Origin: PVC group bacterium
GTDB taxonomy: Bacteria; Omnitrophota; Gorgyraeia; B26-G9
NCBI GenBank assembly: GCA_024231215.1
Contig: JAAEQR010000195.1
Span: 363,724-427,723 of the forward strand
Direction of reading: 5' to 3'
Length of the DNA: 64,000 nt
Shown: positions 20,177 through 47,497 of the stretch, piece after piece
Layout: each line of letters opens with the position of its first letter
Position numbering within the stretch: the stretch's first letter is position 1
Position numbers and translations under genes: made by a program
Notes under the pieces: generated by a model
What the model was told of the DNA's origin: nothing
The model's input: only the letters and a program-made list of their open reading frames with translations
The model's database searches: none

Positions 20177-20180
20177 AAAT

Positions 20181-21044
20181 ATGGAAGAAGCCTCAAAAAA
20201 AGTAGATATTTTAATTGAAGCATTACCGTATATCCAACGGTTTTTTGGAAAAGTGGTAGTGGTCAAGTATGGTGGTAGTGCCGTGGAACAGGCGGAATTA
20301 AACCATTCTATACTTGAAGATATTACCTTTATGAATCATGTGGGGATACATCCGGTGGTAGTTCACGGTGCCGGTCCGTTTATATCTCAGAAAATGAGGG
20401 ATAAAGGGGTTGAAGTAAAATTTATTGATGGTATCCGGGTTACAAATGAACAAACTCTGGATATTGCCAGCGATGCGCTTAATATAGTGAATCGAAGCAT
20501 TGTTAAATATTTAAAAAAATTGGGGAATGAATCAAAAGGATTTGTCGGTAGGAACGGCGAATTGATCGTTGCCAAGAAAAAAAAGACTAAACCTGATGTC
20601 GGATTTGTAGGAAATGTTGTTGGTTTTGATAAAAAATTGATTCATAGCTTATTGCATTCAAAAATTGTTCCTGTGGTTGCTCCTTTAGGTATAGGAGAAA
20701 ACGGAGAGATGTATAATTTAAATGCTGATACTGTGGCAGCAGAGATTGCTGTGGCCATGGGAGCAGAGAAATTGGTATTGCTTACTAATGTGCGTGGAAT
20801 AATGGCAGATGTTAAGAATTCGGAGTCATTGGTATCTAGTGTTACGGTTGAAGAAGTGAAAAGTTTAATAGATAGGGATGTTGTGCATGGGGGGATGATT
20901 CCTAAGGTAAAGGCGTGTGTTATGGCGGCGGAGAATGGGGTGCATAAAACCCATATTATCGATGCTCAGATATTGCATGCTTTGCTTTTAGAGGTTTATA
21001 CAGATAAAGGTATTGGAACTGAAATTATAAAAAGAGGGGTTTAA
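20181..21044 (+). CDS. argB: acetylglutamate kinase
   Basis: VVKYGGSA, HGAGPFIS motifs. Confidence 0.92.
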   Translation: MEEASKKVDILIEALPYIQRFFGKVVVVKYGGSAVEQAELNHSILEDITFMNHVGIHPVVVHGAGPFISQKMRDKGVEVKFIDGIRVTNEQTLDIASDALNIVNRSIVKYLKKLGNESKGFVGRNGELIVAKKKKTKPDVGFVGNVVGFDKKLIHSLLHSKIVPVVAPLGIGENGEMYNLNADTVAAEIAVAMGAEKLVLLTNVRGIMADVKNSESLVSSVTVEEVKSLIDRDVVHGGMIPKVKACVMAAENGVHKTHIIDAQILHALLLEVYTDKGIGTEIIKRGV

Positions 21045-22231
21045 TGATGGTAATGGATGCCCAAGATGTAATGGACTTATATAATAATAATGTGGTTGGT
21101 AATTATACCAAGGTGAATTTGGTAATCAGCCGGGCGCGTGGCAGCTGGGTCTGGGATACGCAAAAACGACTTTATCTGGATTTTTTTCCAGGTTGGGCGG
21201 TAAGCGGAATAGGACATTGTCATAAACGGGTGGTAAAGGCGATTTCAAATCAGGCTAAGCAGTTGTTGCATGTATCTAATAATTATTATAACGAATTACA
21301 GGGTAAATTAGCTCAGCGGATTTCTCTGAATTCTTTTGGCGGTAAAGTTTTTTTCTGTAATTCCGGAGCTGAAGCGAATGAGGCAGCGTTTAAATTAGCA
21401 CGTGCTTTTGGTCATCCTAACCGACATGAGATTATTACTATGGAAAAGTCTTTTCATGGGCGGACACTTGCTTGCACTGCAGCTACAGGGCAAGAGGTTT
21501 GTCAAAAAGGCATGGGCCCGATGCCGGATGGATTTAAAAGTGTACCGTTCAATGATAAACAGGCATTGATTAATGCAGTTAGTGATAAGACAGCAGCAAT
21601 AATGATAGAATTGATTCAGGGTGAAGGCGGAGTACGGGTTGCCGGGAAGGAATATGTACGGTTTGTTCGGGACTTTTGTTTTCAGAAAAATATATTGCTT
21701 ATTATTGACGAAGTGCAGACTGGTATGGGTAGAACCGGAGAATTGTTTGCATATCAACATTATGGAATAGAACCGGATATGATGACTTTAGCGAAAAGCT
21801 TAGGTGGAGGAATGCCGATTGGAGCAATGGTTGTACAGAAAAAGATTGCCGGGATGTTAAAGCCGGGAATGCATGCTTCTACATTTGGGGGTAGTCCGAT
21901 TGTCTGTGCAGCTGCTTTGGGGGTTTTTGATGCGATTGAAAAAGATCGATTATTAAAAAATACTGCTAAGATGGGTAGTTATCTACGTGATGAACTTATT
22001 AGGATGAAAGGTCGGCATCCGGTGATAAAAGAAATAAGGGGCATGGGATTGATGTTGGCTGTGGAATTGCTGATGAATGCGCAAAAAGCATACGAATATT
22101 GTTTTTCTATGGGGTTGTTAATAAATTGTACGCAGAACAATACACTGCGGATTATGCCGGCGATGACGGTTACTAAAAAAGAGATCGATCAGGCGATGGA
22201 GATTTTAGAAAAGGCGATCAGTAAATGCTGA
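21044..22231 (+). CDS. argD: acetylornithine aminotransferase
   Basis: class III aminotransferase; PLP-lysine region TLAKSLGGGMPIGA. Confidence 0.9.
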   Translation: MMVMDAQDVMDLYNNNVVGNYTKVNLVISRARGSWVWDTQKRLYLDFFPGWAVSGIGHCHKRVVKAISNQAKQLLHVSNNYYNELQGKLAQRISLNSFGGKVFFCNSGAEANEAAFKLARAFGHPNRHEIITMEKSFHGRTLACTAATGQEVCQKGMGPMPDGFKSVPFNDKQALINAVSDKTAAIMIELIQGEGGVRVAGKEYVRFVRDFCFQKNILLIIDEVQTGMGRTGELFAYQHYGIEPDMMTLAKSLGGGMPIGAMVVQKKIAGMLKPGMHASTFGGSPIVCAAALGVFDAIEKDRLLKNTAKMGSYLRDELIRMKGRHPVIKEIRGMGLMLAVELLMNAQKAYEYCFSMGLLINCTQNNTLRIMPAMTVTKKEIDQAMEILEKAISKC

Positions 22232-22241
22232 TAGGCTGTAG

Positions 22242-22261
22242 GGCCCCGAAGCTTCGGGGCC
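22242..22261. repeat. perfect GC-rich palindrome GGCCCCGAAGCTTCGGGGCC just after the argD stop
   Basis: read from sequence; preceded by GGCTGTAGGG motif shared with two other intergenic copies. Confidence 0.6.
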
Positions 22262-22279
22262 GAGACAAGGGATAATATT

Positions 22280-23197
22280 ATGAATAAAGATTTATTATCA
22301 GGATTTGATCTTACGGAAAAAGATGTTGCCAATATTTTTAAGCAGACAAAAATATTAAAGAAGAAAAAAATAAGCAATGTTCTTAATGGTAAAGTAGCGG
22401 CGCTTGTTTTTCAAAAGCCGTCTAATCGGACCAGAGTGTCTTTTGAAGTCGGAGCGCGACAGTTAGGGGCGTATTCTATTTATCTGGCTCCGCGTGATAT
22501 TCGATTGGGAGAACGGGAGCCAATTAAAGATGTGGCTCGGGTACTTGCGCGATACGCAGACGGAATTATTGCCCGGACATTTTCACATGAAGATGTTTGT
22601 GAACTGGCAAAGTATTCAGATGTCGGAGTTATTAACGGCTTGAGTGATATGTATCACCCCTGTCAGGCTTTGGCTGATGTATATACAGTTTATGAAAATG
22701 CAGGAAAGTTTAAAGGCGTTAAGCTGGCTTATGTTGGTGATGGAAATAATGTGGTGCATTCATTACTGGCGATCGGGACTAAAGTTGGATTGTCGATTAG
22801 TGTGGCAACTCCAAAAGGATATGAGCCGGATAAAGAGATTTGGGCCCAGGCTGTAAAAATAAGTAAGAAGACTAAAGCGAAAATTTTACATACTCATGAT
22901 CCCGAAGATGCAGTTAAAGGCGCAGATTTTATATATACTGATGTGTGGACTTCTATGGGGCAGGAAAAAGAGAAGCTTGCACGTAAGCGTATATTTAAAA
23001 AATATCAGATCAACAGTCAGTTGTTGAAAAAAGCAAAGAAAAATTGTTTAGTATTACATTGTATGCCGATGCACAGGGGCGAGGAAATAACCGATGAGGT
23101 GGCAGAGTCAAAGCAGTCGGTGGTTTTTGATCAGGCGGAAAATCGTTTACATGTGCAGAAAGCGGTAATGGCAATGCTATTTAAAAAGCATAAATAG
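22280..23197 (+). CDS. argF: ornithine carbamoyltransferase
   Basis: STRTR carbamoyl-phosphate motif, HCMP. Confidence 0.92.
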   Translation: MNKDLLSGFDLTEKDVANIFKQTKILKKKKISNVLNGKVAALVFQKPSNRTRVSFEVGARQLGAYSIYLAPRDIRLGEREPIKDVARVLARYADGIIARTFSHEDVCELAKYSDVGVINGLSDMYHPCQALADVYTVYENAGKFKGVKLAYVGDGNNVVHSLLAIGTKVGLSISVATPKGYEPDKEIWAQAVKISKKTKAKILHTHDPEDAVKGADFIYTDVWTSMGQEKEKLARKRIFKKYQINSQLLKKAKKNCLVLHCMPMHRGEEITDEVAESKQSVVFDQAENRLHVQKAVMAMLFKKHK

Positions 23198-23287
23198 CAG
23201 GTAATAGTCTATGGTCAATAGTCCATAGAAAAAGCAAAAACTGTAGGTGACAATTATTAAGAAAAATCATATGGAAAGGTTCTAATC

Positions 23288-24460
23288 ATGAAAAAAGTAG
23301 TATTAGCTTATTCAGGGGGATTGGATACTTCTTGCTGTGTGCAGTGGCTTCAGGATAAAGGATTTGAAGTGATATGTTTTAGTGCTAATTTGGGAAGTGA
23401 ATTTTCTCCTGCACAGTTGAAAAAGAAAGCAAAGGCTAGTGGTATTAAGAAAATATATGTCGAAGATTTGCAAAAAGAATTTGCAGATGACTATATTCTC
23501 CCGGCATTAAAGGCAAATGCTGTTTATGAGTCCAAATATGTTTTATCTACAGCTTTGGGTCGGCCGTTGATCGCAAAATATTTAGTTGATATTGCGCATA
23601 AAGAAAAAGCTTCATATGTTGCCCATGGCTGTACCGGCAAAGGAAATGATCAGGTCAGGATTGATACAACAGTAAAAATTTTAGATCCGAAATTAAAAAT
23701 AATTGCGCCGTTACGGGTTTGGGAGCTTACATCACGTGAATCGGAAATTGCATATGCAAAGCAAAAAAAGATTGCAATCTCTACAACTCGAGAAAAGATT
23801 TACAGTATTGATCAAAACATGTGGGGTATTAGCATTGAAGGCGGAATGATGGAGGATTTAACTAATGCTCCGGATGAATCAGCCTATGTCTTAACTAAGA
23901 GCATTGATAAGACTCCAAATAGGGCAGAGTACGTTGAGATTGAATTTAACAAGGGAGCTCCGGTCAAGATCAACGGAAAGAAAAAGAATTTTTTGGAAAT
24001 AATTGAGATTTTAAATAAATTAGGTGGCAAGCATGGTATTGGAAGGACGGATCTTGTTGAGGATCGGACTGTAGGTATTAAATCACGGGAGATTTATGAA
24101 GCTCCTGCGGCTTGGATTTTGCACCGGGCCCATCAAGAGCTCGAGAGTGTGGTTTTAGATAAAGATACGTTAAGTTTTAAAGAAACAGTATCCCAGAGGT
24201 ATTCGCAGCTTGCCTATCAGGGATTGTGGTTCTCAAGGTTGCGCAGGAGTCTGAATGCTTTTGTTGAGTTGACACAGCAAAAAGTAACGGGTTCGATAAA
24301 ATTAAAACTTTATAAAGGTAGTATTACAGTTGCTTCAAGAAAATCAAAGTATTCTTTATATAAAAAAGAATTAGCGACATATGGTGAGGATGACCAGTTT
24401 GACCGGGAAGATGCAAAAGGTTTTATAGAAATATTTTCTTTACCATATCGGGAGAAATAG
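23288..24460 (+). CDS. argG: argininosuccinate synthase
   Basis: AYSGGLDTS PP-loop. Confidence 0.92.
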   Translation: MKKVVLAYSGGLDTSCCVQWLQDKGFEVICFSANLGSEFSPAQLKKKAKASGIKKIYVEDLQKEFADDYILPALKANAVYESKYVLSTALGRPLIAKYLVDIAHKEKASYVAHGCTGKGNDQVRIDTTVKILDPKLKIIAPLRVWELTSRESEIAYAKQKKIAISTTREKIYSIDQNMWGISIEGGMMEDLTNAPDESAYVLTKSIDKTPNRAEYVEIEFNKGAPVKINGKKKNFLEIIEILNKLGGKHGIGRTDLVEDRTVGIKSREIYEAPAAWILHRAHQELESVVLDKDTLSFKETVSQRYSQLAYQGLWFSRLRRSLNAFVELTQQKVTGSIKLKLYKGSITVASRKSKYSLYKKELATYGEDDQFDREDAKGFIEIFSLPYREK

Positions 24461-24521
24461 AAAAAAGGCTAATAGCTGATGGCTGATAGCTTATAATTGT
24501 TGATGGATTAACTTAGGAGTT

Positions 24522-25895
24522 GTGATGGCTAAAAAATTATGGGGTGGACGGTTTAAAAAATCGATTGATAAGGATTTTGAAGAATTTTCAAAGTCTATAC
24601 AGTACGACTATAAGCTGGCAAAGTATGATATTTACCATTCTAAGATCCATGCGCTTGCTTTGAAAAACAGTGGGATTTTAACGGCTGCGGAATCGAAAAA
24701 AATTATTACTGTTTTAGATGGTATATTGGGCAATATTGAAAGTGGAGATTTTAAATTCAACTCTACTTCCGAGGATATTCATACTGAAATCCAGAATTTT
24801 TTAGAAAAAAAAGTGGGCAAATTAGCTTTAAAACTACATACCTTACGATCGCGGAATGATCAAGTGGTTTTTGATGCAAAATGGTTTTGTAAATTTGAAG
24901 CTGTGCAGATTATATGTTTGTTGAATGAACTCGAGAAAAATTTACAAACAATCAGCAGAAAACATAAAGACAAAGCGTTTATTGGATATACTCATACTCA
25001 GAGGGCACAGGTAGTTCGGTTCGATGATTATATTAATGCGTATTATTTTATGTTTAAGAGGGATTTTCAGCGGGTATCAAAGTTTTTTGATGGACTTAAT
25101 GTCTATATCGGTGCCGGAGCTTTAGCCGGGAGTTCTTTGACTAAGGATGCTTATGATCAGGCAGCATCGTATTTATTGGATAAGATGAAAGAACTATCAA
25201 AAATAGTAAAGCCTGTAGAAAATTCATTGGATAATGTTAGTGACCGGGATTTTATTGTTGAGTTTTTGAGCATCTTATCTATTATTCAGATGCATCTTTC
25301 CCGTTTTAGCGAGGATATGATTTTGTATTCTACTCAGGAGTTTAATTATATTGATTTGCCGGAAGAGTTTTGTACAGGAAGCAGTCTAATGCCGCATAAA
25401 AAGAATCCGGATTTCTTAGAACTGGTACGAGGGTATACAGGGCAGGTTAATGGTAATTTGATTGCCGTGCTTACAACAATGAAGGGATTGCCCCTTACTT
25501 ATAACCGGGATATGCAATTAGATAAAGAGCCATTGTTTTCTTCGGTGGAGATTTTAAAGAATGAATTGAAAATAATGGCTAAATTTGTAAAAGGTATAAA
25601 AATTAAGGAAGAAATCATTGCGAAAGCTCTGGAAGATGAATGCTTATATGCTACAGAATTAGCTGAGTTTCTGGTGCATGAAAACGTAGCGTTTAAAGAA
25701 GCGCATGATATTGTAGGTAAACTTATTCGATATTCGCAAGATAAGAAAGTGAAGATAAGGGAGATTTCAGATAAGCAATTGCGGGGATTTCATAAGGCGC
25801 TTAATCAAAAAGAAATAAAAAAGATAATGACACCGCAATATGCGATAAAATCAAAAAAATCAATCAACAGAAAGGTGCTGAAAATTAATGCATGA
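24522..25895 (+). CDS. argH: argininosuccinate lyase
   Basis: fumarate-lyase signature GSSLMPHKKNP. Confidence 0.92.
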   Translation: MMAKKLWGGRFKKSIDKDFEEFSKSIQYDYKLAKYDIYHSKIHALALKNSGILTAAESKKIITVLDGILGNIESGDFKFNSTSEDIHTEIQNFLEKKVGKLALKLHTLRSRNDQVVFDAKWFCKFEAVQIICLLNELEKNLQTISRKHKDKAFIGYTHTQRAQVVRFDDYINAYYFMFKRDFQRVSKFFDGLNVYIGAGALAGSSLTKDAYDQAASYLLDKMKELSKIVKPVENSLDNVSDRDFIVEFLSILSIIQMHLSRFSEDMILYSTQEFNYIDLPEEFCTGSSLMPHKKNPDFLELVRGYTGQVNGNLIAVLTTMKGLPLTYNRDMQLDKEPLFSSVEILKNELKIMAKFVKGIKIKEEIIAKALEDECLYATELAEFLVHENVAFKEAHDIVGKLIRYSQDKKVKIREISDKQLRGFHKALNQKEIKKIMTPQYAIKSKKSINRKVLKINA

Positions 25896-27147
25896 TTTTA
25901 ACTTTAAAAAAGATCAACTTTTTTGCGAAAATGTAAGCGTGGAGAAAATAGTTAAAGAGGTAGGAACTCCGGTGTTTGTATACAGCCATAAAACACTGGT
26001 TGACCATCTTATTAAAATAAAAACTGCATTTGCGAAAATCTCTCCGCTTATATGTTATTCCATGAAGGCCAATTCGAATTTAACTATTTGCAGTGAATTA
26101 GTTAAAAATGGTGCGGGAATAGACATCGTTTCCGGAGGAGAATTATATCGTGCAAAAAAAATTGGCGTGTCTGGTAAAAAGATTGTTTATGCTTCGGTTG
26201 GTAAGACAGAAACGGAAATAGCCGAAGCGATTAAAACCGGCATTTTATTTTTTAATGCGGAGTCAATTCCTGAGCTTGAACTAATCAATTCAGTGGCTGG
26301 AAGACTTAGAAAAAAACAAAATGTAGCGATTCGGATCAATCCGAATGTTGATGCGCATACGCATCATTACATTACTACAGCAAAGAAACAAAATAAGTTC
26401 GGAATTGATATGGGTACCAGCCGAAAGATTTTTCTACAATTAAGTAAAAAGCTTAAGAATGTAAAACTGTGCGGCGTGCATGTGCATATCGGTTCTCAGA
26501 TTGAAGAGGTGACCCCGTTTATCCAGGCTATAAAAAAGTCTTTGGCTTTGATTAATGAGTTAAATAAAAAAGGTGCAGGAATCACGCATCTGAACATCGG
26601 TGGTGGATTAGGAATAGTTTATCGTAAGGAAAGACCTCAGACCGCGGATGATTATGCACGGGCGATACTGCCTTTATTGAAGGATTCAGGGCTTAAAGTG
26701 ATTTTAGAGCCGGGTAGATTTATTGCCGGAAATGCCGGGATATTGCTGGCTAAAATTACCTATGTAAAAGATACCCCGGCAAAACGTTTTGTTATTGTGG
26801 ACGCAGCAATGAACGATTTAATACGACCTTCATTTTACGATGCATATCATGAAATTGTACCGGTGAAAGCGGACAAAAAAGAAAAACTTAAAAAAGCAGA
26901 TGTTGTCGGAGCTATCTGCGAAAGCGGTGATTTTATTGCCAAAGACAGGCGTTTGCCGGAAGCATTAAAACCTGCGGATATTTTAGCGGTAATGAGTGCA
27001 GGTGCTTATGGGTTTACAATGTCCAGTAATTATAACAGTCGGCGGCGTGCGGCTGAAGTGTTAGTAAAAGGTAACCGGTATTTTATTATAACAAAGAGAG
27101 AGAGTTATGCTGATTTAATACGAAATGAGGTTGTAGCTAAAGTGTAA
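25888..27147 (+). CDS. lysA: diaminopimelate decarboxylase
   Basis: PLP-lysine region LICYSMKAN, GGGLG, CESGD. Confidence 0.9.
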   Translation: MHDFNFKKDQLFCENVSVEKIVKEVGTPVFVYSHKTLVDHLIKIKTAFAKISPLICYSMKANSNLTICSELVKNGAGIDIVSGGELYRAKKIGVSGKKIVYASVGKTETEIAEAIKTGILFFNAESIPELELINSVAGRLRKKQNVAIRINPNVDAHTHHYITTAKKQNKFGIDMGTSRKIFLQLSKKLKNVKLCGVHVHIGSQIEEVTPFIQAIKKSLALINELNKKGAGITHLNIGGGLGIVYRKERPQTADDYARAILPLLKDSGLKVILEPGRFIAGNAGILLAKITYVKDTPAKRFVIVDAAMNDLIRPSFYDAYHEIVPVKADKKEKLKKADVVGAICESGDFIAKDRRLPEALKPADILAVMSAGAYGFTMSSNYNSRRRAAEVLVKGNRYFIITKRESYADLIRNEVVAKV

Positions 27148-27156
27148 GGAGTTGTT

Positions 27157-28107
27157 ATGAAAAAGAAGGCTAAACAAAAAAAGCAGGTGAAGCTCAAAAA
27201 AGCAAAGAAGAGTCTGCGTCCGAAGAAAGTTGTGAAAAAGGTGATTAAAAAGAAAAAGACTGTTTCTGTGAAAAAGGCAAAACCCAAAAAAGCTAAAGTG
27301 GTAAGAAAGAGGAAATTTCAGTTTGCCAAAATGGTTGCGTCGGGAAATGATTTCATTGTATTTGATAACCGTCGCAGTGGATTAAAGAATGGTTCGGAAT
27401 TGGCTGCAGTGTTATGTAATAGAATAGAAGGTATTGGGGCTGATGGGTTGATTTTCATTGAACAATCCCGAAAGGCAGATTTTAAAATGCGCATTTTTAA
27501 TTCCGATGGCTCAGAAGCGGAAATGTGCGGGAATGGAATGCGTTGCGCTGCGCTTTTTAAGGGCAAGAAAAATGCCAAAGTTGAGACACTGGCAGGGATG
27601 TTAAAGGCTGAACTTAAAAATGATCAGATAAAGGTGAAAATGACACCGCCTAAGAATTTACAGATTAATATGAATATAAATGTGAACGGGCGTTTTTATC
27701 CAATCAATATGGTTAATACCGGAGTACCTCATGCAATTTATTTTGTGGAAAACGCGGATGTGGCAAATGTCCGGGTTTTAGGCAGATTGATTCGTTATCA
27801 CCAGATTTTTCAGCCGGAAGGAACTAATGTAGATTTTGTTGCAGTTACAGACGAGGAAAATCTGAATATTCGAACATATGAGCGTGGTGTGGAAGCCGAG
27901 ACGCTGGCTTGTGGGACTGGTTCGGTTGCGGCAGCTTTGATTTATCATCATAAGTTTATAACCACAGAAGGCAGCTTTATGATAAACATTCACACAAAAA
28001 GCGGTGAAATTGTAAAAGTTTATTTTGATTATCAGAATAATTCTTATGAAAACGTGTGGTTAGAAGGAACGGCAAAGATTGTTTATAAGGGGGAATGTTA
28101 TGTTTAA
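27157..28107 (+). CDS. dapF: diaminopimelate epimerase with about 52-aa lysine-rich N-terminal extension
   Basis: canonical DapF core begins FQFAKMVASGNDF; catalytic EMCGNG and ACGTGS; in-frame upstream K-rich stretch with strong RBS AAGGAG before ATG 27157. Confidence 0.85.
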   Translation: MKKKAKQKKQVKLKKAKKSLRPKKVVKKVIKKKKTVSVKKAKPKKAKVVRKRKFQFAKMVASGNDFIVFDNRRSGLKNGSELAAVLCNRIEGIGADGLIFIEQSRKADFKMRIFNSDGSEAEMCGNGMRCAALFKGKKNAKVETLAGMLKAELKNDQIKVKMTPPKNLQINMNINVNGRFYPINMVNTGVPHAIYFVENADVANVRVLGRLIRYHQIFQPEGTNVDFVAVTDEENLNIRTYERGVEAETLACGTGSVAAALIYHHKFITTEGSFMINIHTKSGEIVKVYFDYQNNSYENVWLEGTAKIVYKGECYV

Positions 28108-28990
28108 AGGTTCAATGGTTGCGATTGTTACCCCGTTTAAAGACGGTAGGCTTGATGAAGATAAACTTAAAGAGTTAGTAGAATTTCATGTTAAAAACAA
28201 AACTACTGCCATTGTGCCTTGTGGAACAACCGGTGAGTCAGCAACTTTGTCTCTGGCTGAACATGAGCGGGTGATTGAACTTGTTGTGGAAACTGCGGGT
28301 AGAAAAGTCCCGGTTATTGCCGGTACAGGCTCAAATAATACTGCAGAAGCAATTAGGCTGACTAAACATGCAAAGGAAGCTGGTGCAGATGCGGCGTTGT
28401 TAATATCACCGTACTATAATAAGCCGACGCAAGAAGGGTTATATTTACATTTTAAAGAAATTGCAGATAATGTGGATATCCCGATTATTCTTTATAATAT
28501 TGCCGGAAGAACTGCGGTTAATATGCTGCCGGAAACAGTAGCTAGACTTGCGCATGAGTGCAAAAATATTGTTGGGGTAAAAGAGGCTTCAGGTAATCTG
28601 GAACAAATGGCGAGGGTAAAGCTGCTTTGTCCTAAGGATTTTGCGTTGATTTCCGGAGATGATGCTTTGATACTGCCGATTTTATCTATCGGCGGTGTGG
28701 GTGTGATTTCAGTGGTTGCAAATATTGTACCGCAGGATGTATCAAGGGTGATTACTGAATTTCAAAAAGGAAATATGAAGAAAGCTCAGGAAGCTTATTA
28801 TAAATTGCTGCCTTTAGTAAAGGCAATGTTTCTGGAGACAAACCCGATTCCGGTTAAGACGGCAATGGGATTATTGGGGATGATAACACCAGAACTTCGT
28901 TTACCGCTTTGCGCTTTAAGTGATGCTAATGTGAAAAAACTTAAGCAGGAATTAGCGGCATATGGGATATTGAAGGGGAAGAAGAAATGA
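28100..28990 (+). CDS. dapA: 4-hydroxy-tetrahydrodipicolinate synthase
   Basis: AIVTPF, GTTGES, active-site Lys region; start at ATG 28100 after AAGGGGGAA. Confidence 0.9.
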   Translation: MFKGSMVAIVTPFKDGRLDEDKLKELVEFHVKNKTTAIVPCGTTGESATLSLAEHERVIELVVETAGRKVPVIAGTGSNNTAEAIRLTKHAKEAGADAALLISPYYNKPTQEGLYLHFKEIADNVDIPIILYNIAGRTAVNMLPETVARLAHECKNIVGVKEASGNLEQMARVKLLCPKDFALISGDDALILPILSIGGVGVISVVANIVPQDVSRVITEFQKGNMKKAQEAYYKLLPLVKAMFLETNPIPVKTAMGLLGMITPELRLPLCALSDANVKKLKQELAAYGILKGKKK

Positions 28991-40568: not shown

Positions 40569-42142
40569 GAATTTTAGTAACTGATCCTTTAGCAGAAGAA
40601 GGAATGAAAGTTTTAAAAGAAAATGGTCTTTCGGTTGATTTGAAACCTAAATTGCCTTTGGAAAAATTAAAAGAGATAATTGGTGAATATGAAGCATTAA
40701 TTGTAAGAAGTGGAACAACGGCAACTGCGGAAATAATTAATGAGGCTAAAAACTTAAAGGTGATTGGCCGGGCTGGGGTGGGTGTGGATAATGTGGATAT
40801 TGATGCTGCAACCACTCAAGGTATTGTGGTTATGAACACTCCTGGCGGTAATACAATATCAACAGCAGAACACACTGTAAGTATGATGCTTGCTTTAAAT
40901 AGAAATATTCCTCAGGCAAATGTTTCCTTGAAAAATGGGGAGTGGAATCGCAAGAAATTCCAGGGCAAGGAATTACTAAAAAAAACTCTGGGTATAATAG
41001 GGTTGGGCAGAATTGGTTTTGAAGTTGCAAAGAGGGCTCAGTCTTTTGGGATGAGGACTATTGCCTATGATCCGTTTCTTTCGACAAAGAAAGCTCAGCA
41101 GGCAGATATAGAACTTCTAGAGTTAAAAGAATTGTTTAGCCGGGCTGACTATATTACTGTACATACTCCCTTGACAGATGAAACCCGGCATATGATTGGC
41201 AAAAAAGAATTTAGCCAAATGAAAAAAGGGGTAAAGATTCTTAATTGTGCGCGTGGTGGTATTGTGGATGAAAAAGCATTATATGAAGCAATACAGGAAG
41301 GGATTGTTTCCGGAGCAGCTTTGGATGTGTTTGAACAGGAACCTCCTAAAGATAATGATTTGGTCGGTCTTGATTGCGTGATTGCTACTCCTCATCTTGG
41401 GGCTGCAACTGAAGAAGCTCAGGTTAATGTAGCTATAGAAATTGCTCAGCAGGTAACAGATATGCTCAAGGGGAAAGGGATTAGAAATGCTGTTAACTTT
41501 CCTTGTATAGAAGGTGAAACACGAGCGATTATTGAACCCTATATAAGGTTGGCAGAAAAGTTAGGAACATTACAAGGACAGATTATTACTGGACATATTA
41601 ATAAGGTCAGTATAAAATATGGAGGGGAGATTGTAAATCAAGAGGTTGCACCCATAACCATAGCTTTGATAAAGGGATTGCTATCTCCGATATTACAAGA
41701 ATCTGTGAATTTTGTTAATGCTTCGTTGATTGCCAAGGAGCGTGGAATTTCAGTAAGTGAAACCAAAATACTTGAGACAGAAGAATTTGCTAACCTTATA
41801 AATGTTGAGGTAGAAACGAATAAAGGCAAAACTGCTGTTGCCGGGACATTGTTTTCAAAGCATAATCCGCGGATAGTTAAAATAAACGAATTTTATATAG
41901 ATGCAATTCCGGAAGGGGTAATAATTGTTACCCATAACCATGATAAACCGGGCATTGTTGGAGAAATCGGTACTATTTTAGGTGAGAACAATATTAATAT
42001 TGCGGCCATGAATTTTGGCCGGAGCTGCCCCGGTGGCGAGTCTTTGATTATTCTTAACGTGGATAGTGATGTTCCCGGGGAAGTTTTAGAAAAAATTAAA
42101 CAAAGTGAAAATGTGTTGGATATCAAACTCATAAAACTTTAA
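40556..42142 (+). CDS. serA: D-3-phosphoglycerate dehydrogenase with C-terminal ACT domain
   Basis: GLGRIGFEVAKRA NAD-binding, 2-hydroxyacid dehydrogenase catalytic region, 528 aa. Confidence 0.9.
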   Translation: MCRMRILVTDPLAEEGMKVLKENGLSVDLKPKLPLEKLKEIIGEYEALIVRSGTTATAEIINEAKNLKVIGRAGVGVDNVDIDAATTQGIVVMNTPGGNTISTAEHTVSMMLALNRNIPQANVSLKNGEWNRKKFQGKELLKKTLGIIGLGRIGFEVAKRAQSFGMRTIAYDPFLSTKKAQQADIELLELKELFSRADYITVHTPLTDETRHMIGKKEFSQMKKGVKILNCARGGIVDEKALYEAIQEGIVSGAALDVFEQEPPKDNDLVGLDCVIATPHLGAATEEAQVNVAIEIAQQVTDMLKGKGIRNAVNFPCIEGETRAIIEPYIRLAEKLGTLQGQIITGHINKVSIKYGGEIVNQEVAPITIALIKGLLSPILQESVNFVNASLIAKERGISVSETKILETEEFANLINVEVETNKGKTAVAGTLFSKHNPRIVKINEFYIDAIPEGVIIVTHNHDKPGIVGEIGTILGENNINIAAMNFGRSCPGGESLIILNVDSDVPGEVLEKIKQSENVLDIKLIKL

Positions 42143-42157
42143 CCCAAATTTTGGGTT
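42141..42157 (+). terminator. palindrome AACCCAAATTTTGGGTT after serA
   Basis: read from sequence. Confidence 0.35.
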
Positions 42158-42184
42158 AGAACCTAAAAAACTATGGGGTGAAGG

Positions 42185-43648
42185 ATGAAATGTAAACTGT
42201 TTTATTTTATCGCGGTGCTGTTAGGAATAATACTTATTCCTGTGGTTTCCCAAGCAGAACCAACGATCATTAAGGATATCAACATTGATACGGATGGACA
42301 GGTTGTAAAGATTTCTATTATTTCAAACCAGTCTTTTCAGGTAGAAAGTTTTAAAAACGAAGAAGATACGGCTAGTTATATAGTGGTTGATTTTCTAGGT
42401 ACTGTATATACAGATCTTCCCTCGGTTATTAAGGTTGATACCGAGACAGTCGGAAAAATAAATCTTGTGCGGGGAGATGCCGGGCAGATAACTGTAGCGG
42501 GAAAAGATTATCGTACTTTAGATTTTTTAGCGATCATGTTGGAGATTGCAGCGGATTATAATATTGTCCAAGAAGAGACAATATCAAAACTGAATGTTGC
42601 TCCGGTTGGTTCTCTGACAAAACAAAAAGCAGTTGCCTTAGAGCCGCCGATTGTAGTGGCTAAAGTAAAAAAAACAAATATCCAGCCAAAAAAAGAAATT
42701 ATTAAGAAAAAAGAATTTTATGAATCGCCACGTAAGAAAATAAGGAAGAAAAAAGTCAGCAGGAAAAAGACGAAAAAGAAAAAAACAATAAAAAAAGCCA
42801 AGTCTTCTAGAAAGGCTAAGCGTACGCGTGTAACAGACGATGATTTGATTAATAGAATAGTAGAGGAAACAGTTAAGGAAAAAGAAGCAGCTAATGCTCA
42901 GATAGAGGAATTAACTACGCAGTTGCATAAGATGCAGGATGAGCTGAATATTTCTAAGACTGAACAGGCTGAACTGGAAAACCGGATCAATGCAATAATA
43001 TCTAAACTGGATAATTTAAATGATGCTTTAACCGAAGGAATTCGTAAACGTCGTGAGCTGGGAGAACAGGTTGATGATCTGGTTTCCAAGCGGAAGATAT
43101 ATTTAGAAGCAAAGAAAAGATTTGAGTCTTTGCAGGAACAGTTTGCGGAGATAAATGATAAGGTAGAGGTATTGAACGAGGATATCGGAGTTGTTAAAAC
43201 AGACTTAGATGATGCGCTGGTTGAAGAGAAAAAACTCGAGAAAGAATTTGACGCAGCAGATAAGGGATATGAGGATATTAAAACAGAGTATGATGACAAA
43301 TTCAAACAGAAGAAAACAGTAGCTGATAAAGTTTCTGTTTTAAATGAGCAGATCGCAAAGTTGAAAAAACAACTTGGTGACGCATCTGCGAAAAAAGACA
43401 GACTTTCAAATCAATTGAAAAACTTAGAAAGCAAACGCAGGTATAACGAAATTGAACGTATGCGGATAAAAGAAAAGTTAGTTGATAAAAAAGCGCAGAC
43501 TGCAGATCTTTCCCAAAAGCACATGTTGTTCAAACAGGATTTAAGTGCAGCTGTGATAGAACAAGATAAGACGGACAATCTTTATAGAGATGCGGAGTTT
43601 GACTACGAGAAGATACGTTCGGAATTAGAGTCATTTTTAGAGAACTAA
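42185..43648 (+). CDS. secreted AMIN-like domain / lysine-rich / long coiled-coil protein
   Basis: signal peptide; AMIN-like N-domain (ASYIVVDFLGTVY); KKKIRKKKVSRKKTKKKKTIKK; heptad-rich remainder. Confidence 0.6.
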   Translation: MKCKLFYFIAVLLGIILIPVVSQAEPTIIKDINIDTDGQVVKISIISNQSFQVESFKNEEDTASYIVVDFLGTVYTDLPSVIKVDTETVGKINLVRGDAGQITVAGKDYRTLDFLAIMLEIAADYNIVQEETISKLNVAPVGSLTKQKAVALEPPIVVAKVKKTNIQPKKEIIKKKEFYESPRKKIRKKKVSRKKTKKKKTIKKAKSSRKAKRTRVTDDDLINRIVEETVKEKEAANAQIEELTTQLHKMQDELNISKTEQAELENRINAIISKLDNLNDALTEGIRKRRELGEQVDDLVSKRKIYLEAKKRFESLQEQFAEINDKVEVLNEDIGVVKTDLDDALVEEKKLEKEFDAADKGYEDIKTEYDDKFKQKKTVADKVSVLNEQIAKLKKQLGDASAKKDRLSNQLKNLESKRRYNEIERMRIKEKLVDKKAQTADLSQKHMLFKQDLSAAVIEQDKTDNLYRDAEFDYEKIRSELESFLEN

Positions 43649-43695
43649 TATATTTACTAATTAAATAAATCGATAGTGGAAAGGATGGTGAATCC

Positions 43696-46218
43696 ATGAG
43701 GAAACGATTTGCCCGGTTATTAATATTTACCGTAGTTATCTTATGTGGATATTGTAATGTGCAACTTTTTGCTGAGCCGGTTATAATGACAGAAGTGGAG
43801 ATAACCGAGGGCAGTGATGCAGTCAAGATGTTGTTTTCGACCAATAAATCGATTCCAATTGAATGTTATGATTTGAGCACTCCGCCACAAATCATTATTG
43901 ATTTCATGGGAGAAATATACACTGATGGTGCTGAGATAATAACGGTTGATAAGGGAGCGGTTAAACAGATACGCATTATTAAAGGGACCCGGGATTCTCA
44001 AACTCTGGACAAATCTTATTATTCCATGGATTTTTTAATTGTTGATCTTAAAGAGCCTTTACGATATGACTTTAGTCAGGGGCTTACTACCGCGATTTTG
44101 GTTATATCAAAGCCGGGTAAAATGGTAACAGCGAGTATTCCCAGTACCAAGGTATCAATGTCCGAGGTTGAAGTTAAGGCGGAGATTCCTGTAGAAAAAG
44201 TAGAGATAGAAGAAAAGCCAGAGCCGGTGGTTATTGCCAAGAAGGCTGATCCAGTGCAGCTTGAAGAAAAAGAATATGATATGCCGGCACCTATTCCTGC
44301 GGCTGCTCCGATGCCAAGGGCGAAAGAGGACGGAAAAGTTAAAAAAGGAGCGAAAGCTGTTGGACGTGGTATAGCTGGTGTAGGTAAGGGGATAAAGAAT
44401 TTTTTCTTTGGGAATAAAAAGAAAAAAGATGCAAAAAAAGAAGATCTGAAGAAAAAAGAGGAAGAGAAAAAAGAGGAAGAGAAAAAAGAGGTAAAAAAGA
44501 ACAAAAGAAGAAAGAAAAAAGAAGTAAAACCGCAAAAGAAAAAGACTGTAAAGAAAAAAACCGAGAAGAAAAAGGAAATAGCGCGTAAGAAAAAATCTCC
44601 AGCCAAGAAGAAAATTAACACTAAGAAATTTAAAACAGCTTTATCTCGAGCTGAAAAAAAGCTGAAAGCAGCGAAAAAGGAATATGAAGAATGTAAAGCA
44701 GAGACCGAACGCCTTGAACGGAAGCTTGCGGATACAAAAAAAGAATTAACTCAGGCTAAACAGGATCAGAAAAATAATAATAAAAATATACCTGTAACTA
44801 GAAAGAAAAAAGAAAAGGCTGAACGTGAATTTGAAAAAAGTTTAAAGGATGCTGAATCGGCAAAGAATAAAGCCAATGCTATCTGGGTGGAATATTCACG
44901 ATCTAAAGAGGAGCTGAGTTTGCTATTAGAAAAAAATGCCAAGAAACAATTTATTGCGGATAAACAGAAAAGGTATGATAAGAAAAAGAACGAGTTAGAA
45001 GCGGCAATAAAGAGTGCTGAGGCAGCAAAATCAGAGAGTAATAAGAAACTTGACAAATACACTTTGGCTAAGGAAAACCTAGAGAAACTGTTGAGTAGTT
45101 CTAAGCCCTCTGAGCAGAAATTGAATTTATTGCAGAGTAAATATGAGGTAACCGAAGAGGAACTTACTATTGCAAGACAGAAAATGAATAATGCGCAGCA
45201 AAAATTATCCGAAGCAGAGAGATTTTATAAAAAATGTGAATTAGAAAAATCGGACGCAGAATACAGAGCATCAATGATGAAAATGGATGCAACCATGGGA
45301 GCGGATAAGTCTGCAATTGAAGCAGCACCTGTTTATGTAGAAGTAGAATCGAAATATGATGCCCGGGAAGCTAGAAAAGCTGAGCTGGCTAAGAAAAAAG
45401 AAGAAAAGCGAAAAGCTAAAGAGGCTAAAATAGCAAAGCTGGCAAGAAAACGCGAGGAAGTTAGGAAGAAAAAGAAAGAGAGAAAGGCAGAATTGGCCAG
45501 GAAAAAAGAAGAAAAGCGAAAAGCTAAAAAGGCTAAGAAAGCAGAATTGGCAGAGGCCAGAGAAGAGGAAAGAAAGGCCGAAGCAGCTAAGAGAATGGGG
45601 GCAGTTAGAAAGAGTGAAGAGCAAAAACAAGCAGAAGAAGCAGAACGAATTGAACAGGCTAAGCTGGCTGCGCAGGAAGCAGCATTGCAAAAACTGATGG
45701 CTCAAAACAAAGATGCATCAGTTATCGCAGAGGAAACTAAGGTTGAAGAAGTAAAACCAGTTATAGTGAAACCCAAACGGAGAAAAAAGTCTAATTTAGG
45801 GACAACTCCTAAAGTAGCTAAACAAAAATCATCGAAAGAAGAAGTTCTTAAAGCTGCAGTAGAATTGCGTAATGCCGGACTTGAAATGCAGAGGAACGGG
45901 AATATGGACGGAGCGATGAGGTTTTATCAGAAGGCATTGATGAGTGATCCCCAATACGCTACTGTGTATAATGATTTAGGAATACTATATGAGCAAAAAG
46001 GATTGGATGATAAGGCCAAAATGGAATACATTAAGGCTTTAAAAATTAATTCGCATTATATAAAAGCACATAGTAATTTGGCGCTTTTATATGAAAAATT
46101 GGGAGATGATAAGAAAGCTTATTATCATTGGAAACAGAGGGCAGAGTTGGGAGATCCCAACGATCCCTGGACAAATAAAGCTGCAGAAAAACTTAAAGAA
46201 ATTGAGCAGAGAAAGTGA
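43696..46218 (+). CDS. paralogous secreted AMIN-like / K-rich / coiled-coil protein with TolA-like A/K/E repeats and C-terminal TPR repeats
   Basis: signal peptide; AMIN-like PPQIIIDFMGEIY; 28-nt exact DNA repeat (45396-45424 and 45504-45532) encoding ELA(K/R)KKEEKRKAK; TPR-like AMRFYQKAL...YNDLGILYEQKG. Confidence 0.6.
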   Translation: MRKRFARLLIFTVVILCGYCNVQLFAEPVIMTEVEITEGSDAVKMLFSTNKSIPIECYDLSTPPQIIIDFMGEIYTDGAEIITVDKGAVKQIRIIKGTRDSQTLDKSYYSMDFLIVDLKEPLRYDFSQGLTTAILVISKPGKMVTASIPSTKVSMSEVEVKAEIPVEKVEIEEKPEPVVIAKKADPVQLEEKEYDMPAPIPAAAPMPRAKEDGKVKKGAKAVGRGIAGVGKGIKNFFFGNKKKKDAKKEDLKKKEEEKKEEEKKEVKKNKRRKKKEVKPQKKKTVKKKTEKKKEIARKKKSPAKKKINTKKFKTALSRAEKKLKAAKKEYEECKAETERLERKLADTKKELTQAKQDQKNNNKNIPVTRKKKEKAEREFEKSLKDAESAKNKANAIWVEYSRSKEELSLLLEKNAKKQFIADKQKRYDKKKNELEAAIKSAEAAKSESNKKLDKYTLAKENLEKLLSSSKPSEQKLNLLQSKYEVTEEELTIARQKMNNAQQKLSEAERFYKKCELEKSDAEYRASMMKMDATMGADKSAIEAAPVYVEVESKYDAREARKAELAKKKEEKRKAKEAKIAKLARKREEVRKKKKERKAELARKKEEKRKAKKAKKAELAEAREEERKAEAAKRMGAVRKSEEQKQAEEAERIEQAKLAAQEAALQKLMAQNKDASVIAEETKVEEVKPVIVKPKRRKKSNLGTTPKVAKQKSSKEEVLKAAVELRNAGLEMQRNGNMDGAMRFYQKALMSDPQYATVYNDLGILYEQKGLDDKAKMEYIKALKINSHYIKAHSNLALLYEKLGDDKKAYYHWKQRAELGDPNDPWTNKAAEKLKEIEQRK

Positions 46219-46222
46219 GATC

Positions 46223-47497
46223 ATGTCTAATTTAGTTATTGTTGGTGCCCAGTGGGGAGACGAGGGCAAAGGTAAAATCATTGATATTCTCTCCAAAGAT
46301 GCTGATTATGTTGTAAGATATCAAGGGGGTAATAACGCGGGGCATACAGTTGTGGTGGGGAAGGAAGAAATAATTTTACATCTTATCCCTTCGGGAGTTT
46401 TGCACAAAAACAAGGTATGTATAATTGGTAATGGTGTGGTTATAGATCCGGAAGCATTGCTGGCGGAGGTTTCATATTTAAAAGCTAAGAAGATAAATGT
46501 TAATAATAGTCTTCGTATAAGTGATTCTGCACATGTTATTTTCCCCTACCATAAGATATTGGATAAGTTAAGAGAGGAAAAGTTTAGAAAAACAAAGATA
46601 GGTACTACCGGCAGGGGGATTGGTCCTTGTTACACAGATAAGCTTTCCCGGGGAGGTATCCGGATTGCAGATCTTCTTAATAAGCGTATATTTAAAGAAA
46701 AATTAGAAGCTAATATAGAAGAGAAAAATGCTATTTTTACTAAAGTGTATAACTATAAAAGGTATTCTTTTAAAGATATATATGCGCAGTATTTAAAATA
46801 TGCAAAAAAAATAAAGCCGTATGTTTGTAATTGTTCGGTAGTTTTAAATGAAGCAATTAGTAAACGTAAAAATATTCTTTTCGAGGGAGCTCAAGGGACA
46901 CTTTTAGATGTAGATCATGGAACATATCCATTTGTCACATCTTCTAATTCTACAGCCGGCGGAGCATGTGTTGGTAGTGGTATTGGGCCGACAAAAATAG
47001 ATAAGGTTATAGGGATCGTAAAGGCTTATACTACACGTGTGGGAGAAGGGCCTTTGCCAACAGAATTTTCTGCGGATCTTCTGAAAAAAATTAGACATAT
47101 AGGAAAAGAATTTGGTGCCACCACCGGACGGCCGCGGCGTTGTGGTTGGTTTGATGCTGTGGTAGTTAAACATGCTGTGGCAATAAATGGGATTAATACT
47201 ATTGCAGTTACAAAACTGGATGTTCTTGATACTATGCCGATTTTAAAAATATGTATAGGATATAAGTATAAAGGTAAGATTTATGAGAACTTTCCGGCTG
47301 ATATTGAGGCGCTTTGGAAAGCCAAACCTATCTACGAAGAATGTAAAGGGTGGATGAAGGATACAACCAAGGCTAAGAAATATTCTGATTTACCGAATAA
47401 TGCTCGTAAATATCTAAAGAGGATATCTAATCTTGTCGGAGCTAAAATACAGATAGTTTCTGTTGGATCAGATCGAAATCAAACATTATTTGTTTAA
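46223..47497 (+). CDS. purA: adenylosuccinate synthetase
   Basis: VIVGAQWGDEGKGK P-loop, GNNAGHTV; start ATG 46223. Confidence 0.93.
   Translation: MSNLVIVGAQWGDEGKGKIIDILSKDADYVVRYQGGNNAGHTVVVGKEEIILHLIPSGVLHKNKVCIIGNGVVIDPEALLAEVSYLKAKKINVNNSLRISDSAHVIFPYHKILDKLREEKFRKTKIGTTGRGIGPCYTDKLSRGGIRIADLLNKRIFKEKLEANIEEKNAIFTKVYNYKRYSFKDIYAQYLKYAKKIKPYVCNCSVVLNEAISKRKNILFEGAQGTLLDVDHGTYPFVTSSNSTAGGACVGSGIGPTKIDKVIGIVKAYTTRVGEGPLPTEFSADLLKKIRHIGKEFGATTGRPRRCGWFDAVVVKHAVAINGINTIAVTKLDVLDTMPILKICIGYKYKGKIYENFPADIEALWKAKPIYEECKGWMKDTTKAKKYSDLPNNARKYLKRISNLVGAKIQIVSVGSDRNQTLFV

Follow-up and report, generated by a model that had tools for sequence, protein, structure and literature searches.

A conserved tandem pair of putatively exported proteins with divergent AMIN domains in Candidatus Omnitrophota, a candidate periplasmic scaffold

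The g1-g2 pair

Two adjacent genes, here named g1 (42185..43648, + strand) and g2 (43696..46218, + strand), were analysed in a 64,000-nucleotide stretch of DNA (the window) from a PVC group bacterium of the Omnitrophota (GenBank assembly GCA_024231215.1, contig JAAEQR010000195.1, positions 363,724 to 427,723). The two open reading frames (ORFs) encode proteins of 487 and 840 amino acids, as had been reported in an original prediction made from the sequence alone; the product of g1 is MCP4650940.1 at NCBI, annotated 'hypothetical protein [PVC group bacterium]'. The N-terminal domains of both proteins are divergent AMIN domains, and the sequences compared indicate that the genes form a conserved tandem pair restricted to Omnitrophota. 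Predicted export signals, AMIN domains, rigid helices and disordered basic tethers, together with a TPR module that is conserved and two genes that are strictly co-inherited, are best explained if the pair acts as a peptidoglycan-anchored periplasmic scaffold or adaptor in diderm Candidatus Omnitrophota, a reading to which a probability of roughly 0.55 is assigned from sequence and predicted models. The original prediction proved largely right, and its envelope scaffold module stands as a reasonable proposal rather than as a result.

After Sec-dependent export and cleavage of the signal peptide, the divergent AMIN domain would dock each protein to peptidoglycan, perhaps at a specialised site (the septum or a pole, for instance), in the manner demonstrated for AMIN in AmiC and PilQ. 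The disordered and strongly basic linker, which varies in length, would serve as a flexible tether, and a basic-aromatic patch present in the linkers of about half of the family may touch an anionic membrane surface. The fixed rod of g1, some 272 residues long, and the hairpin (~15 nm) and charged single helix of g2 would act as spacers or oligomerisation rods, while the near-invariant C-terminal TPR module of g2 would recruit a partner protein. Presumably g1 and g2 would cooperate within the scaffold, the pair behaving like the CpoB/TolA/FimV class of wall-associated scaffolds and belonging to none of them.

Divergent AMIN domains

The AMIN domain of g1 occupies residues 24-140 (42254..42604, + strand) and that of g2 residues 26-142 (43771..44121, + strand), the latter with an invariant ECYDL..PPQ..D.MG motif. 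The AMIN-like strings quoted in the original prediction were located at residue 66 of each protein (IVVDFLGTVYTD in g1 and IIIDFMGEIYTD in g2). Alignment of the two N-terminal segments by BLASTP gave 27% identity over 179 residues (E 4e-16). When the g1-family and g2-family profiles were compared using hhalign, the signal peptide and the AMIN domain alone aligned (E 1.2e-27, 144 columns) and no homology was detected past the AMIN domain. The two proteins had been described as paralogues of one common architecture; this holds for the signal peptide and AMIN domain, and for the remainder only as a similarity of layout.

Assignment to the AMIN family was made through intermediates. When 1.84 billion representatives were scanned exhaustively by HMMER with the N-domain profile (A1), 89 proteins were retrieved, and of 90 proteins subsequently scanned, mostly those retrieved by the profile, 24 were positive for the Pfam AMIN model. 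In a retrieved PilQ-type secretin the matched stretch (138-233) coincided with the Pfam AMIN domain at 141-233 (E 2.4e-19), and an AmiC-type amidase with three Pfam AMIN domains was also retrieved (E 3.3e-46). Alignment of the profile of 31 N-domains from the pair only (A4) with that of five Pfam-verified AMIN domains from the amidase and secretin (A5) yielded a probability of 98.1% and an E-value of 1.1e-13 over 96 of 103 columns; it is this match, together with homology to the g2 domain, that identifies the domain of g1. The AlphaFold2 (AF2) model of the N-domain was confident, with a predicted local distance difference test (pLDDT) score of 89.6, and showed an all-beta sandwich as in the solved AMIN domains of AmiC and PilQ. 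The domain of all 28 members lay at the N-terminus directly behind the signal peptide, the position expected of AMIN (PMC2572700). As the three deeper independent tests, transitive retrieval and profile-profile comparison among them, were positive, the N-domains were filed as divergent AMIN. The predicted AMIN-like character is thus borne out at the level of profile homology and fold, although not by a direct match to PF11741 at E ≤ 10.

In comparison with canonical AMIN the domains carry an insertion of approximately 10 residues (..L(D/G)xxYYxxDF) ahead of the penultimate strand, which probably accounts for their being missed by Pfam. The nearest intermediates fall just short of the PF11741 gathering score of 20.5 bits (P0027, 16.5 bits; P0052, 17.2 bits). 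A word-indexed homologue search returned no matches for the g1 N-domain and three proteins for that of g2. Designed 'Pizza' beta-propellers, retrieved in the PDB search with the first profile (E 2e-9), were rejected as an artefact of summing six to seven repeats, each with an i-E of at least 50.

The same AMIN subtype was observed on a variety of other envelope proteins. One to four copies are fused N-terminally to TolC-like efflux proteins (P0036, P0037, P0045, P0049, P0054, P0058, P0062, P0077 and P0078), Pfam OEP being found in 9 of the 90 proteins scanned; at one locus (L037:174-8867) such a gene is followed by those for a resistance-nodulation-division (RND) adaptor and two ACR_tran pumps. 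The combination of AMIN and OEP was recorded in 'at least one instance' in the 2008 AMIN paper (PMC2572700). An AMIN-like domain also forms the C-terminal domain of BamD/YfiO-like TPR lipoproteins (P0081, P0085 and P0087), and occurs at the N-terminus of a Wza-like Poly_export protein and beside a PilZ domain (P0052; P0090), the last an odd pairing of a periplasmic with a cytoplasmic domain. That the subtype is fused to TolC-like, Wza-like, secretin and BamD-like proteins is consistent with a general function of linking components of the outer membrane to the wall.

Export signals

The predicted signal peptide of g1 (42185..42253, + strand; residues 1-23, MKCKLFYFIAVLLGIILIPVVSQ, followed by A|EP) has a positive n-region and an uncharged run of 14 residues, and that of g2 (43696..43770, + strand; residues 1-25) has the same layout as its homologues. 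Across 28 of 28 members, namely g1 of the window and 27 homologues, a positively charged start, an uncharged run of 9-21 residues and a conserved alanine preceding the first domain were found, with the n-region neutral rather than positive in one truncated sequence. The layout was present in 16 of 16 g1-type proteins and 12 of 12 g2-type homologues, and g2 of the window matches it. Both proteins are accordingly predicted to carry cleavable Sec-type signal peptides and to be exported, in agreement with the original prediction. No lipobox cysteine was conserved among the 28 members examined. The Kyte-Doolittle maximum over 19 residues after residue 40 was 1.13-1.26 in g1 and g2 of the window and no greater than 1.66 family-wide, so that no internal transmembrane segment is predicted. 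Since neither a lipid anchor nor an internal membrane segment is predicted, g1 and g2 are presumably soluble and periplasmic.

Linker and rod of g1

A short conserved motif, AVEL.PPIVV, follows the AMIN domain of g1. It precedes a polybasic linker (42665..42832, + strand; residues 161-216) with 30 K/R and 3 D/E residues and a net charge of +27. Basic segments rich in K and R had been predicted in both proteins and were confirmed, the K+R fraction reaching 0.50-0.55 in windows of 56 residues. The basic string quoted for g2, KKNKRRKKKEVKPQKKKTVKKK, was located at residue 267; that quoted for g1 agreed in 17 of 18 letters from residue 184, its first K being R in the actual sequence, RKKIRKKKVSRKKTKKKK. 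Among g1-type proteins the linker measures 52-172 residues and is net positive in 15 of 16, and its sequence is unconserved.

The remainder of g1 is a helical rod (42833..43645, + strand; residues 217-487). Core hydrophobic residues show a strong 3.5-residue periodicity between residues ~225 and ~420 (z 3.5-9 against shuffles), corresponding to a heptad coiled coil. Hundreds of residues of such coiled coil had been predicted for each protein, which stands for this part of g1 and was overstated for g2, where heptad periodicity is only patchy (residues 295-365, 421-476 and 547-602, z 3-6). The length of the rod is 272-276 residues in 16 of 16 g1-type proteins, which share 32-40% identity and give a nearly indel-free alignment (A6). 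A conserved motif with the family consensus ..EYSYRNAK.E.E.IK.EIE.FL is present at the C-terminal end of the rod.

Organisation of g2

The layout of g2 was established from the ORF, a family alignment (A3) and a full-length AF2 model built from a 13-sequence alignment (mean pLDDT 70.1). In order, the protein comprises the signal peptide, the AMIN domain, a disordered basic linker, a helical hairpin, a charged single helix, a second linker and the TPR module.

The first linker (44125..44619, + strand; residues 144-308) is rich in P, A and E and then in K, is disordered in the model (pLDDT below 50) and has a net charge of +28 across the 169-residue segment measured. Linkers of the g2 homologues are 108-300 residues long and all net positive, from +6 to +58. 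Taking g1-type and g2-type proteins together, 28 of 29 linkers are net positive (+4 to +58), a few members being weakly basic or neutral (net -1 to +6). Within the g2 linker lies a basic-aromatic patch (44365..44430, + strand; residues 224-245, RGIAGVGKGIKNFFFGNKKKKD), of which KKRRGLFGLFSGRKKK is an example from a g1-type protein. Such patches were found in 7 of 13 g2-type and 6 of 16 g1-type linkers, where shuffled sequences predicted 1.8 and 0.8, respectively. They presumably recall peripheral membrane-binding motifs, and the patch may be membrane-binding.

The conserved helical region of g2 (44620..45303, + strand; residues 309-536) is modelled as helices of 104 and 120 residues (309-412 and 417-536, pLDDT 90-96) separated by a break of four residues, with W397, Y400 and L407 invariant. 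In Foldseek searches this region matched antiparallel coiled-coil hairpins, those of the SMC arm 5xg2 (224 columns, TMt 0.53) and SH3BP5, and the model suggests that it is likely an antiparallel hairpin about 15 nm long. Matches of coiled-coil segments to ATG16, SMC, Rad50 and crescentin in Pfam and NCBIfam lay far under the cut-offs and were rejected as compositional.

An A/K/E-rich single helix follows (45355..45705, + strand; residues 554-670; pLDDT 64-86). Roughly residues 545-640 of this stretch align to gaps in 12 of 12 g2 homologues, and on this alignment the helix is taken to be a lineage-specific insertion; the TolA-like A/K/E repeats envisaged in the original prediction are absent from these 12 homologues. 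Charged helices of the ER/K type do recur elsewhere along distant relatives. The DNA encoding the insertion contains a repeat (45368..45552, + strand) of two 36-residue units, with 77-nt copies at 45368-45444 and 45476-45552 that are 82% identical. The 28-nt exact repeat noted previously was recovered within it, the 28-mer GAAAAAAGAAGAAAAGCGAAAAGCTAAA lying at 45393-45420 and 45501-45528 with a spacing of 108 nt (36 codons).

After a second linker (residues 670-712), disordered in the AF2 model, g2 ends in a TPR module (45835..46212, + strand; residues 714-839) of three TPRs with capping helices, modelled as seven helices and terminating in a nearly invariant AYYHWKQR..LG...DPWT.KA motif. The predicted C-terminal TPR repeats were confirmed, Pfam TPR_11 matching at residues ~724-808 (E 4.6e-11, 42.7 bits, cut-off 26.8) and TPR_17 at 28.4 bits (cut-off 24.4). 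This module is the most conserved part of the family and is common to the short forms and the AMIN-less relatives described below. The best Foldseek match for the module was the consensus TPR 1na0 (E 7e-5, 33% identity), with OGT also matched. Assignment to a PilF, BamD or CpoB subtype was sought and could not be made: the best matches of the full-length fold search were likewise idealised TPRs and OGT, and the module is therefore regarded as a canonical TPR that cannot be assigned to any of these subtypes.

Conservation and evolutionary history

When one genome per GTDB species was scanned for the pattern, 34 loci were found, all in metagenome-assembled genomes of Candidatus Omnitrophota or in differently labelled bins carrying the same genes. 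At every g2-type locus with enough upstream sequence a g1-type gene lay directly upstream on the same strand (L001-L005, L007, L008, L010, L011 and L013-L017, and also L009, which is fragmented in a poor assembly), in keeping with the conservation of the pairing that had been predicted. Scored as far as each contig reaches, 17 of 17 g2-type genome loci (L002-L018) share the order tig-clpP-(aminotransferase)-serA-g1-g2-purA-mgtC-larB-larC, and the metagenome contig L001 has g1-g2-purA in the same order. No tol-pal, fts, ami or pil genes were found at the 17 syntenic loci. In substance, neither of the outcomes that would tell against the original prediction, namely N-domains that are not AMIN or a pairing not conserved in relatives, was obtained.

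Two of these loci are irregular. On L001 (1461-3613) the g2 homologue is split within the A-rich lysine linker into ORFs of 258 and 408 residues, through either a homopolymer frameshift or assembly error or a genuine split. At L009 (5044-12542), labelled Actinomycetota, the aminotransferase, serA, g1 and purA genes are all split, and so many split genes suggest an indel-rich assembly and a mis-assigned bin.

In shorter relatives (280-430 residues) a linker joins this AMIN subtype to the same TPR module, which ends in W..R..LG..D.WT. Four single AMIN-TPR genes encoding 340-614 residues could be placed on contigs of other lineages (L036, L038, L039 and L040), all of them immediately upstream of purA; one occupies the exact serA-purA slot, and one, of 614 residues, is an intermediate. 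At L039 and L040, genes for OmpA-family, PG_binding_1 and LysM-Peptidase_M23 proteins lie within a few genes downstream of the single-gene form, and these were counted in favour of an envelope association. At L038, purA is flanked by genes for a second TPR protein and a PilZ protein.

More distant relatives were found at L019-L035, mostly in Omnitrophota of higher G+C content (for example L020:9890-10975 and L026:9785-11662). These proteins have a signal peptide and lack AMIN; a TPR of the same subtype with an HW..R..G..DPW end stands at the N-terminus, followed by long ER/K-rich charged helices. An informative fusion partner was sought in this group, which yielded nothing beyond charged helices, linkers rich in P and A and a TPR-like motif at the terminus. 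In at least 9 of the 17 loci the AMIN-less gene adjoins larB or the mgtC-larB-larC block.

Because the pair and its synteny are conserved and single-gene forms occur upstream of purA, once in the serA-purA slot itself, the sequences suggest that an ancestral 'AMIN - linker - TPR' gene upstream of purA was duplicated in tandem to give g1-g2. The most economical history is that an ancestral exported TPR protein gained, or already had, AMIN and was then duplicated in one clade, after which g2 would have kept the TPR and gained the hairpin, and g1 would have exchanged everything past the linker for the coiled-coil rod.

Assessment of the proposed function

Several observations weigh against a wall-anchored scaffold. 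Pfam PF11741 gave no match at E ≤ 10 on the full proteins or the isolated N-domains, and the pair-only profile of 31 sequences retrieved no solved AMIN sequence and no significant PDB match. Since both are blank and identity is very low (about 10-19%), peptidoglycan binding is extrapolated. Distant relatives keep the TPR without AMIN, and wall anchoring is consequently inessential to the core function of the family. The TPR module of g2 is generic, its nearest structures being idealised TPRs, and the basic-aromatic patch is missing from about half of the members, g1 of the window among them. The neighbouring genes (tig, clpP, serA, purA, larBC and the arg and lys genes) belong to housekeeping metabolism and lend no functional support. 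The case for the pair rests on sequence and predicted models, and any interaction between g1 and g2 is hypothetical.

Other functions were considered. The pair could be an accessory of division or wall remodelling, in which AMIN would target septal peptidoglycan and the coiled coils and TPR would coordinate wall hydrolysis or synthesis with outer-membrane constriction, g2 being a functional analogue of CpoB and g1 of the coiled-coil arm of EnvC. Septal targeting of AmiC is the best-established AMIN function (PMC2572700), an AmiC-type amidase has the same AMIN type at profile level, and g2, predicted to be exported, joins a helical region to a C-terminal module of three TPRs. Such a role is nevertheless unlikely, given that g1 and g2 contain no LytM, amidase or other enzymatic domain by Pfam and NCBIfam, that no NCBIfam match to CpoB/YbgF was obtained at E ≤ 10 and that tol-pal, fts and ami genes are absent from the window and the 17 syntenic loci. 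The LysM-Peptidase_M23 (NlpD-like), OmpA-family and PG_binding_1 genes a few genes downstream of the single-gene forms would favour it, but they are interspersed with purine genes and are unconserved in the clade with the pair. An assembly factor of type IV pili or secretins, with AMIN bringing the pilotin-like TPR of g2 to sites of PilQ insertion and g1 as an accessory strut, is suggested by the best NCBIfam TPR matches (PilW, 1.1e-8; Tgl, 2.4e-8), by the retrieval of a PilQ-type secretin with the N-domain profile, and by the near-universal presence of type IVa pilus genes in Omnitrophota (PMC10066038). AMIN is moreover the hallmark N-terminal domain of PilQ, and the Tgl pilotin acts at AMIN-defined sites (PMC10653833). 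Scores were, however, far under the family cut-offs (PilF/PilW TIGR02521, 34.9 bits against 154; Tgl NF033762, 33.6 bits against 225), and because the module is structurally nearest to idealised TPRs the similarity to pilotins is considered generic. Pilotins are lipoproteins whereas no lipobox occurs in g2 or is conserved in its family, and no pil genes were found in the annotated window regions or the syntenic loci, which leaves this role improbable.

Equally hard to sustain is the proposal that these are envelope or surface proteins whose polybasic tracts bind polyanions such as DNA, acidic exopolysaccharide, lipopolysaccharide or a host surface, with AMIN merely an anchor. The linkers are indeed net positive in 28 of 29 members, by up to +58, a polysaccharide/capsule cluster lies ~7 kb downstream in the window, and Omnitrophota have been proposed to be host-attached predators or parasites (PMC10066038). 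Against this, a few members have a net charge of only -1 to +6, and neither the sequence nor the length of the linker is conserved; conservation peaks instead in AMIN, the TPR and the rod or hairpin. The polysaccharide cluster, moreover, lies outside the conserved synteny. Finally, g1 and g2 might be cytoplasmic histone-like or SMC-like chromosome proteins in which an N-terminal hydrophobic stretch has been misread as a signal peptide. Weak SMC/Rad50 coiled-coil matches (NCBIfam E 1.6e-8, far under the cut-offs) point in this direction, as do lysine-rich tracts that we take to be reminiscent of H1-like proteins. These matches are compositional, however (32.8 bits against a cut-off of 567), all 28 members retain the signal-peptide layout, no AMIN domain is known outside exported proteins (PMC2572700) and no ATPase head or hinge was detected with Pfam or NCBIfam, so that a chromosomal function is very improbable indeed.

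The peptidoglycan-anchored scaffold or adaptor thus remains the preferred reading. A bolder version of it would make g1-g2 a clade-specific periplasmic lattice or 'ruler' anchored to peptidoglycan, in which the rod of 272-276 residues and the ~15 nm hairpin set the spacing between wall and membrane, the basic-aromatic linkers clamp a membrane leaflet and the TPR holds an outer-membrane partner. This is speculative and rather unlikely to hold in full. If true, the pair would replace the tethering roles of Lpp, Pal or Tol in cells at life's lower size limit, and the single-gene, intermediate and duplicated forms upstream of purA would record the stepwise evolution of an envelope module.

Gene models and genomic setting

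The pair sits within a long run of genes on the same strand, with the genes for trigger factor (tig), clpP, an aminotransferase and serA on the 5' side and purA, mgtC, larB and larC on the 3' side. The gap between serA and g1 is 42 nt and contains a ribosome-binding site, GGGGTGAAGG; that between g1 and g2 is 47 nt and carries GGAAAGGATGG. The adenylosuccinate synthase gene purA (46223..47497, + strand) lies outside the module yet is invariably linked to g2. Its most likely start is 46223, at the ATG where the conserved N-terminus MSNLVIVGAQWGDEGKGK begins, 4 nt past the g2 stop codon; the mechanically called purA ORF begins at 46091 and overlaps g2 by 128 nt. As this tight junction recurs in all relatives, the single-gene forms included, translational coupling of g2 and purA is suggested. 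In a scan for consensus promoters and terminators, promoters were not in excess over shuffles and no + strand terminator was found among serA, g1, g2 and purA. With the short junctions, these results indicate that g1-g2 are probably co-transcribed with their housekeeping neighbours. A 20-nt palindrome, TTAACCCAAATTTTGGGTTA, at 42139-42158 overlaps the stop codon of serA just 5' of g1; it is not followed by a T-run on the + strand and is therefore not a typical terminator.

Elsewhere in the window, 17961-28987 holds a contiguous arginine biosynthesis operon (argC, argJ, argB, argD, argF, argG and argH) followed by lysA, dapF and dapA. Between 50689 and 63034, genes for a solute-binding protein and an M48 peptidase are followed by the polysaccharide/capsule cluster, which encodes a GNVR/AAA_31 chain-length-regulator or tyrosine-kinase-like protein, a Wzy_C ligase or polymerase, asparagine synthase, a Wzx-type flippase, a methyltransferase, a GT1 glycosyltransferase and PGA_cap. 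No pil, tol-pal, bam, fts or ami (amidase) genes were identified in the annotated regions of the window. All 2-kb bins of 1-64000 have a positive GC skew (0.07-0.34), and the + strand carries the majority of large ORFs. The highest AT skew, 0.40, is reached over g2 (44001-46000) owing to A-rich lysine and glutamate codons, and the same codons create long spurious antisense ORFs; 44076-44621, among others, was set aside as a low-complexity artefact of a coding strand rich in Lys and Glu.

Significance

Omnitrophota are mostly ultra-small and many are probably host-dependent. The phylum is uncultivated and the construction of its envelope barely described, and the locus offers a strongly conserved, phylum-restricted pair of predicted exported proteins. 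Proteins annotated as 'hypothetical' are now assigned a wall-targeting AMIN domain that standard Pfam scans miss, and an AMIN model of higher sensitivity could be built from the A4 alignment. The presence of the divergent AMIN domain on many outer-membrane components hints that lineages with this subtype may rely generally on AMIN-mediated attachment to the wall as a principle of organisation. The findings are thus of relevance to envelope organisation in uncultivated phyla and to the curation of domain databases, their significance being limited because the architectural classes were catalogued in 2008 and the function is inferred.

Comparison with known systems

Among the AMIN architectures catalogued by de Souza et al. 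in 2008, class (viii) joins AMIN to a TolA-like charged helical region and class (ix) to TPR repeats; AMIN was found exclusively in exported envelope proteins and almost always at the N-terminus (PMC2572700). The kind of architecture described here, AMIN with OEP included, was therefore already known. Like those classes, g1 and g2 have a signal peptide, an N-terminal AMIN domain and charged helical or coiled-coil regions, to which g2 adds TPR, and the 2008 proteins are likewise exported, non-enzymatic and predicted to act in targeting or as scaffolds. The comparison is one of architecture: the AMIN model detects the 2008 classes, which come from delta- and alpha-proteobacteria and firmicutes, whereas g1 and g2 are from Omnitrophota and undetectable by Pfam. 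Unlike those classes, g2 unites both features in one protein, and the two genes stand in tandem as a conserved pair, with linkers that are polybasic and disordered and a rod of fixed length. The solved AMIN domains of PilQ (3jc8, 4av2 and 4aqz) and AmiC (4bin) are 9-11% identical to the g1/g2 domain, which differs from them in its insertion of ~10 residues and in being attached to neither a secretin nor an amidase domain.

The original prediction had likened the pair to FimV or TolA, and as a statement of membership this does not hold, no defining feature of either having been found. Resemblance to TolA, FimV, CpoB and pilotins is one of working principle only. As in TolA, residues 554-670 of g2 form a long A/K/E-rich helical segment in a putative envelope protein; the inner-membrane anchor at the N-terminus of TolA, its C-terminal domain III and its tolQR partners all lack a counterpart in g2. 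No match to TolA was obtained in Pfam or NCBIfam, there is no other transmembrane segment, and the neighbours are serA and purA at 17 of 17 syntenic loci. FimV/HubP is a polar landmark scaffold with a peptidoglycan-binding N-domain, long low-complexity or helical regions and a TPR-like C-terminus. Its LysM domain, transmembrane segment and acidic cytoplasmic part contrast with the AMIN domain, lack of an internal transmembrane segment and basic linkers of g1 and g2, for which no LysM or FimV match was found in Pfam or NCBIfam. CpoB (YbgF) is exported, carries a small TPR domain at its C-terminus behind a helical or coiled-coil region and acts at the interface of wall and outer membrane. It resembles g2 in its helical region and C-terminal TPR, and differs in lacking AMIN and a polybasic linker and in being encoded with tol-pal; neither a CpoB/YbgF match (TIGR02795, or in Pfam, at E ≤ 10) nor a tol-pal context was found at the g1-g2 loci. 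PflA, a scaffold of the Campylobacter flagellar disk (9leq), gave a structural score far under those of the AMIN domains, and no flagellar context or sequence similarity was found. What is new in comparison with all of these systems is the divergence of the AMIN domain, the union of both architectures within a tandem pair that is conserved, the fixed length of the rod and the conserved basic linkers, together with the invariable linkage to purA and the reconstruction of single-gene and duplicated forms.

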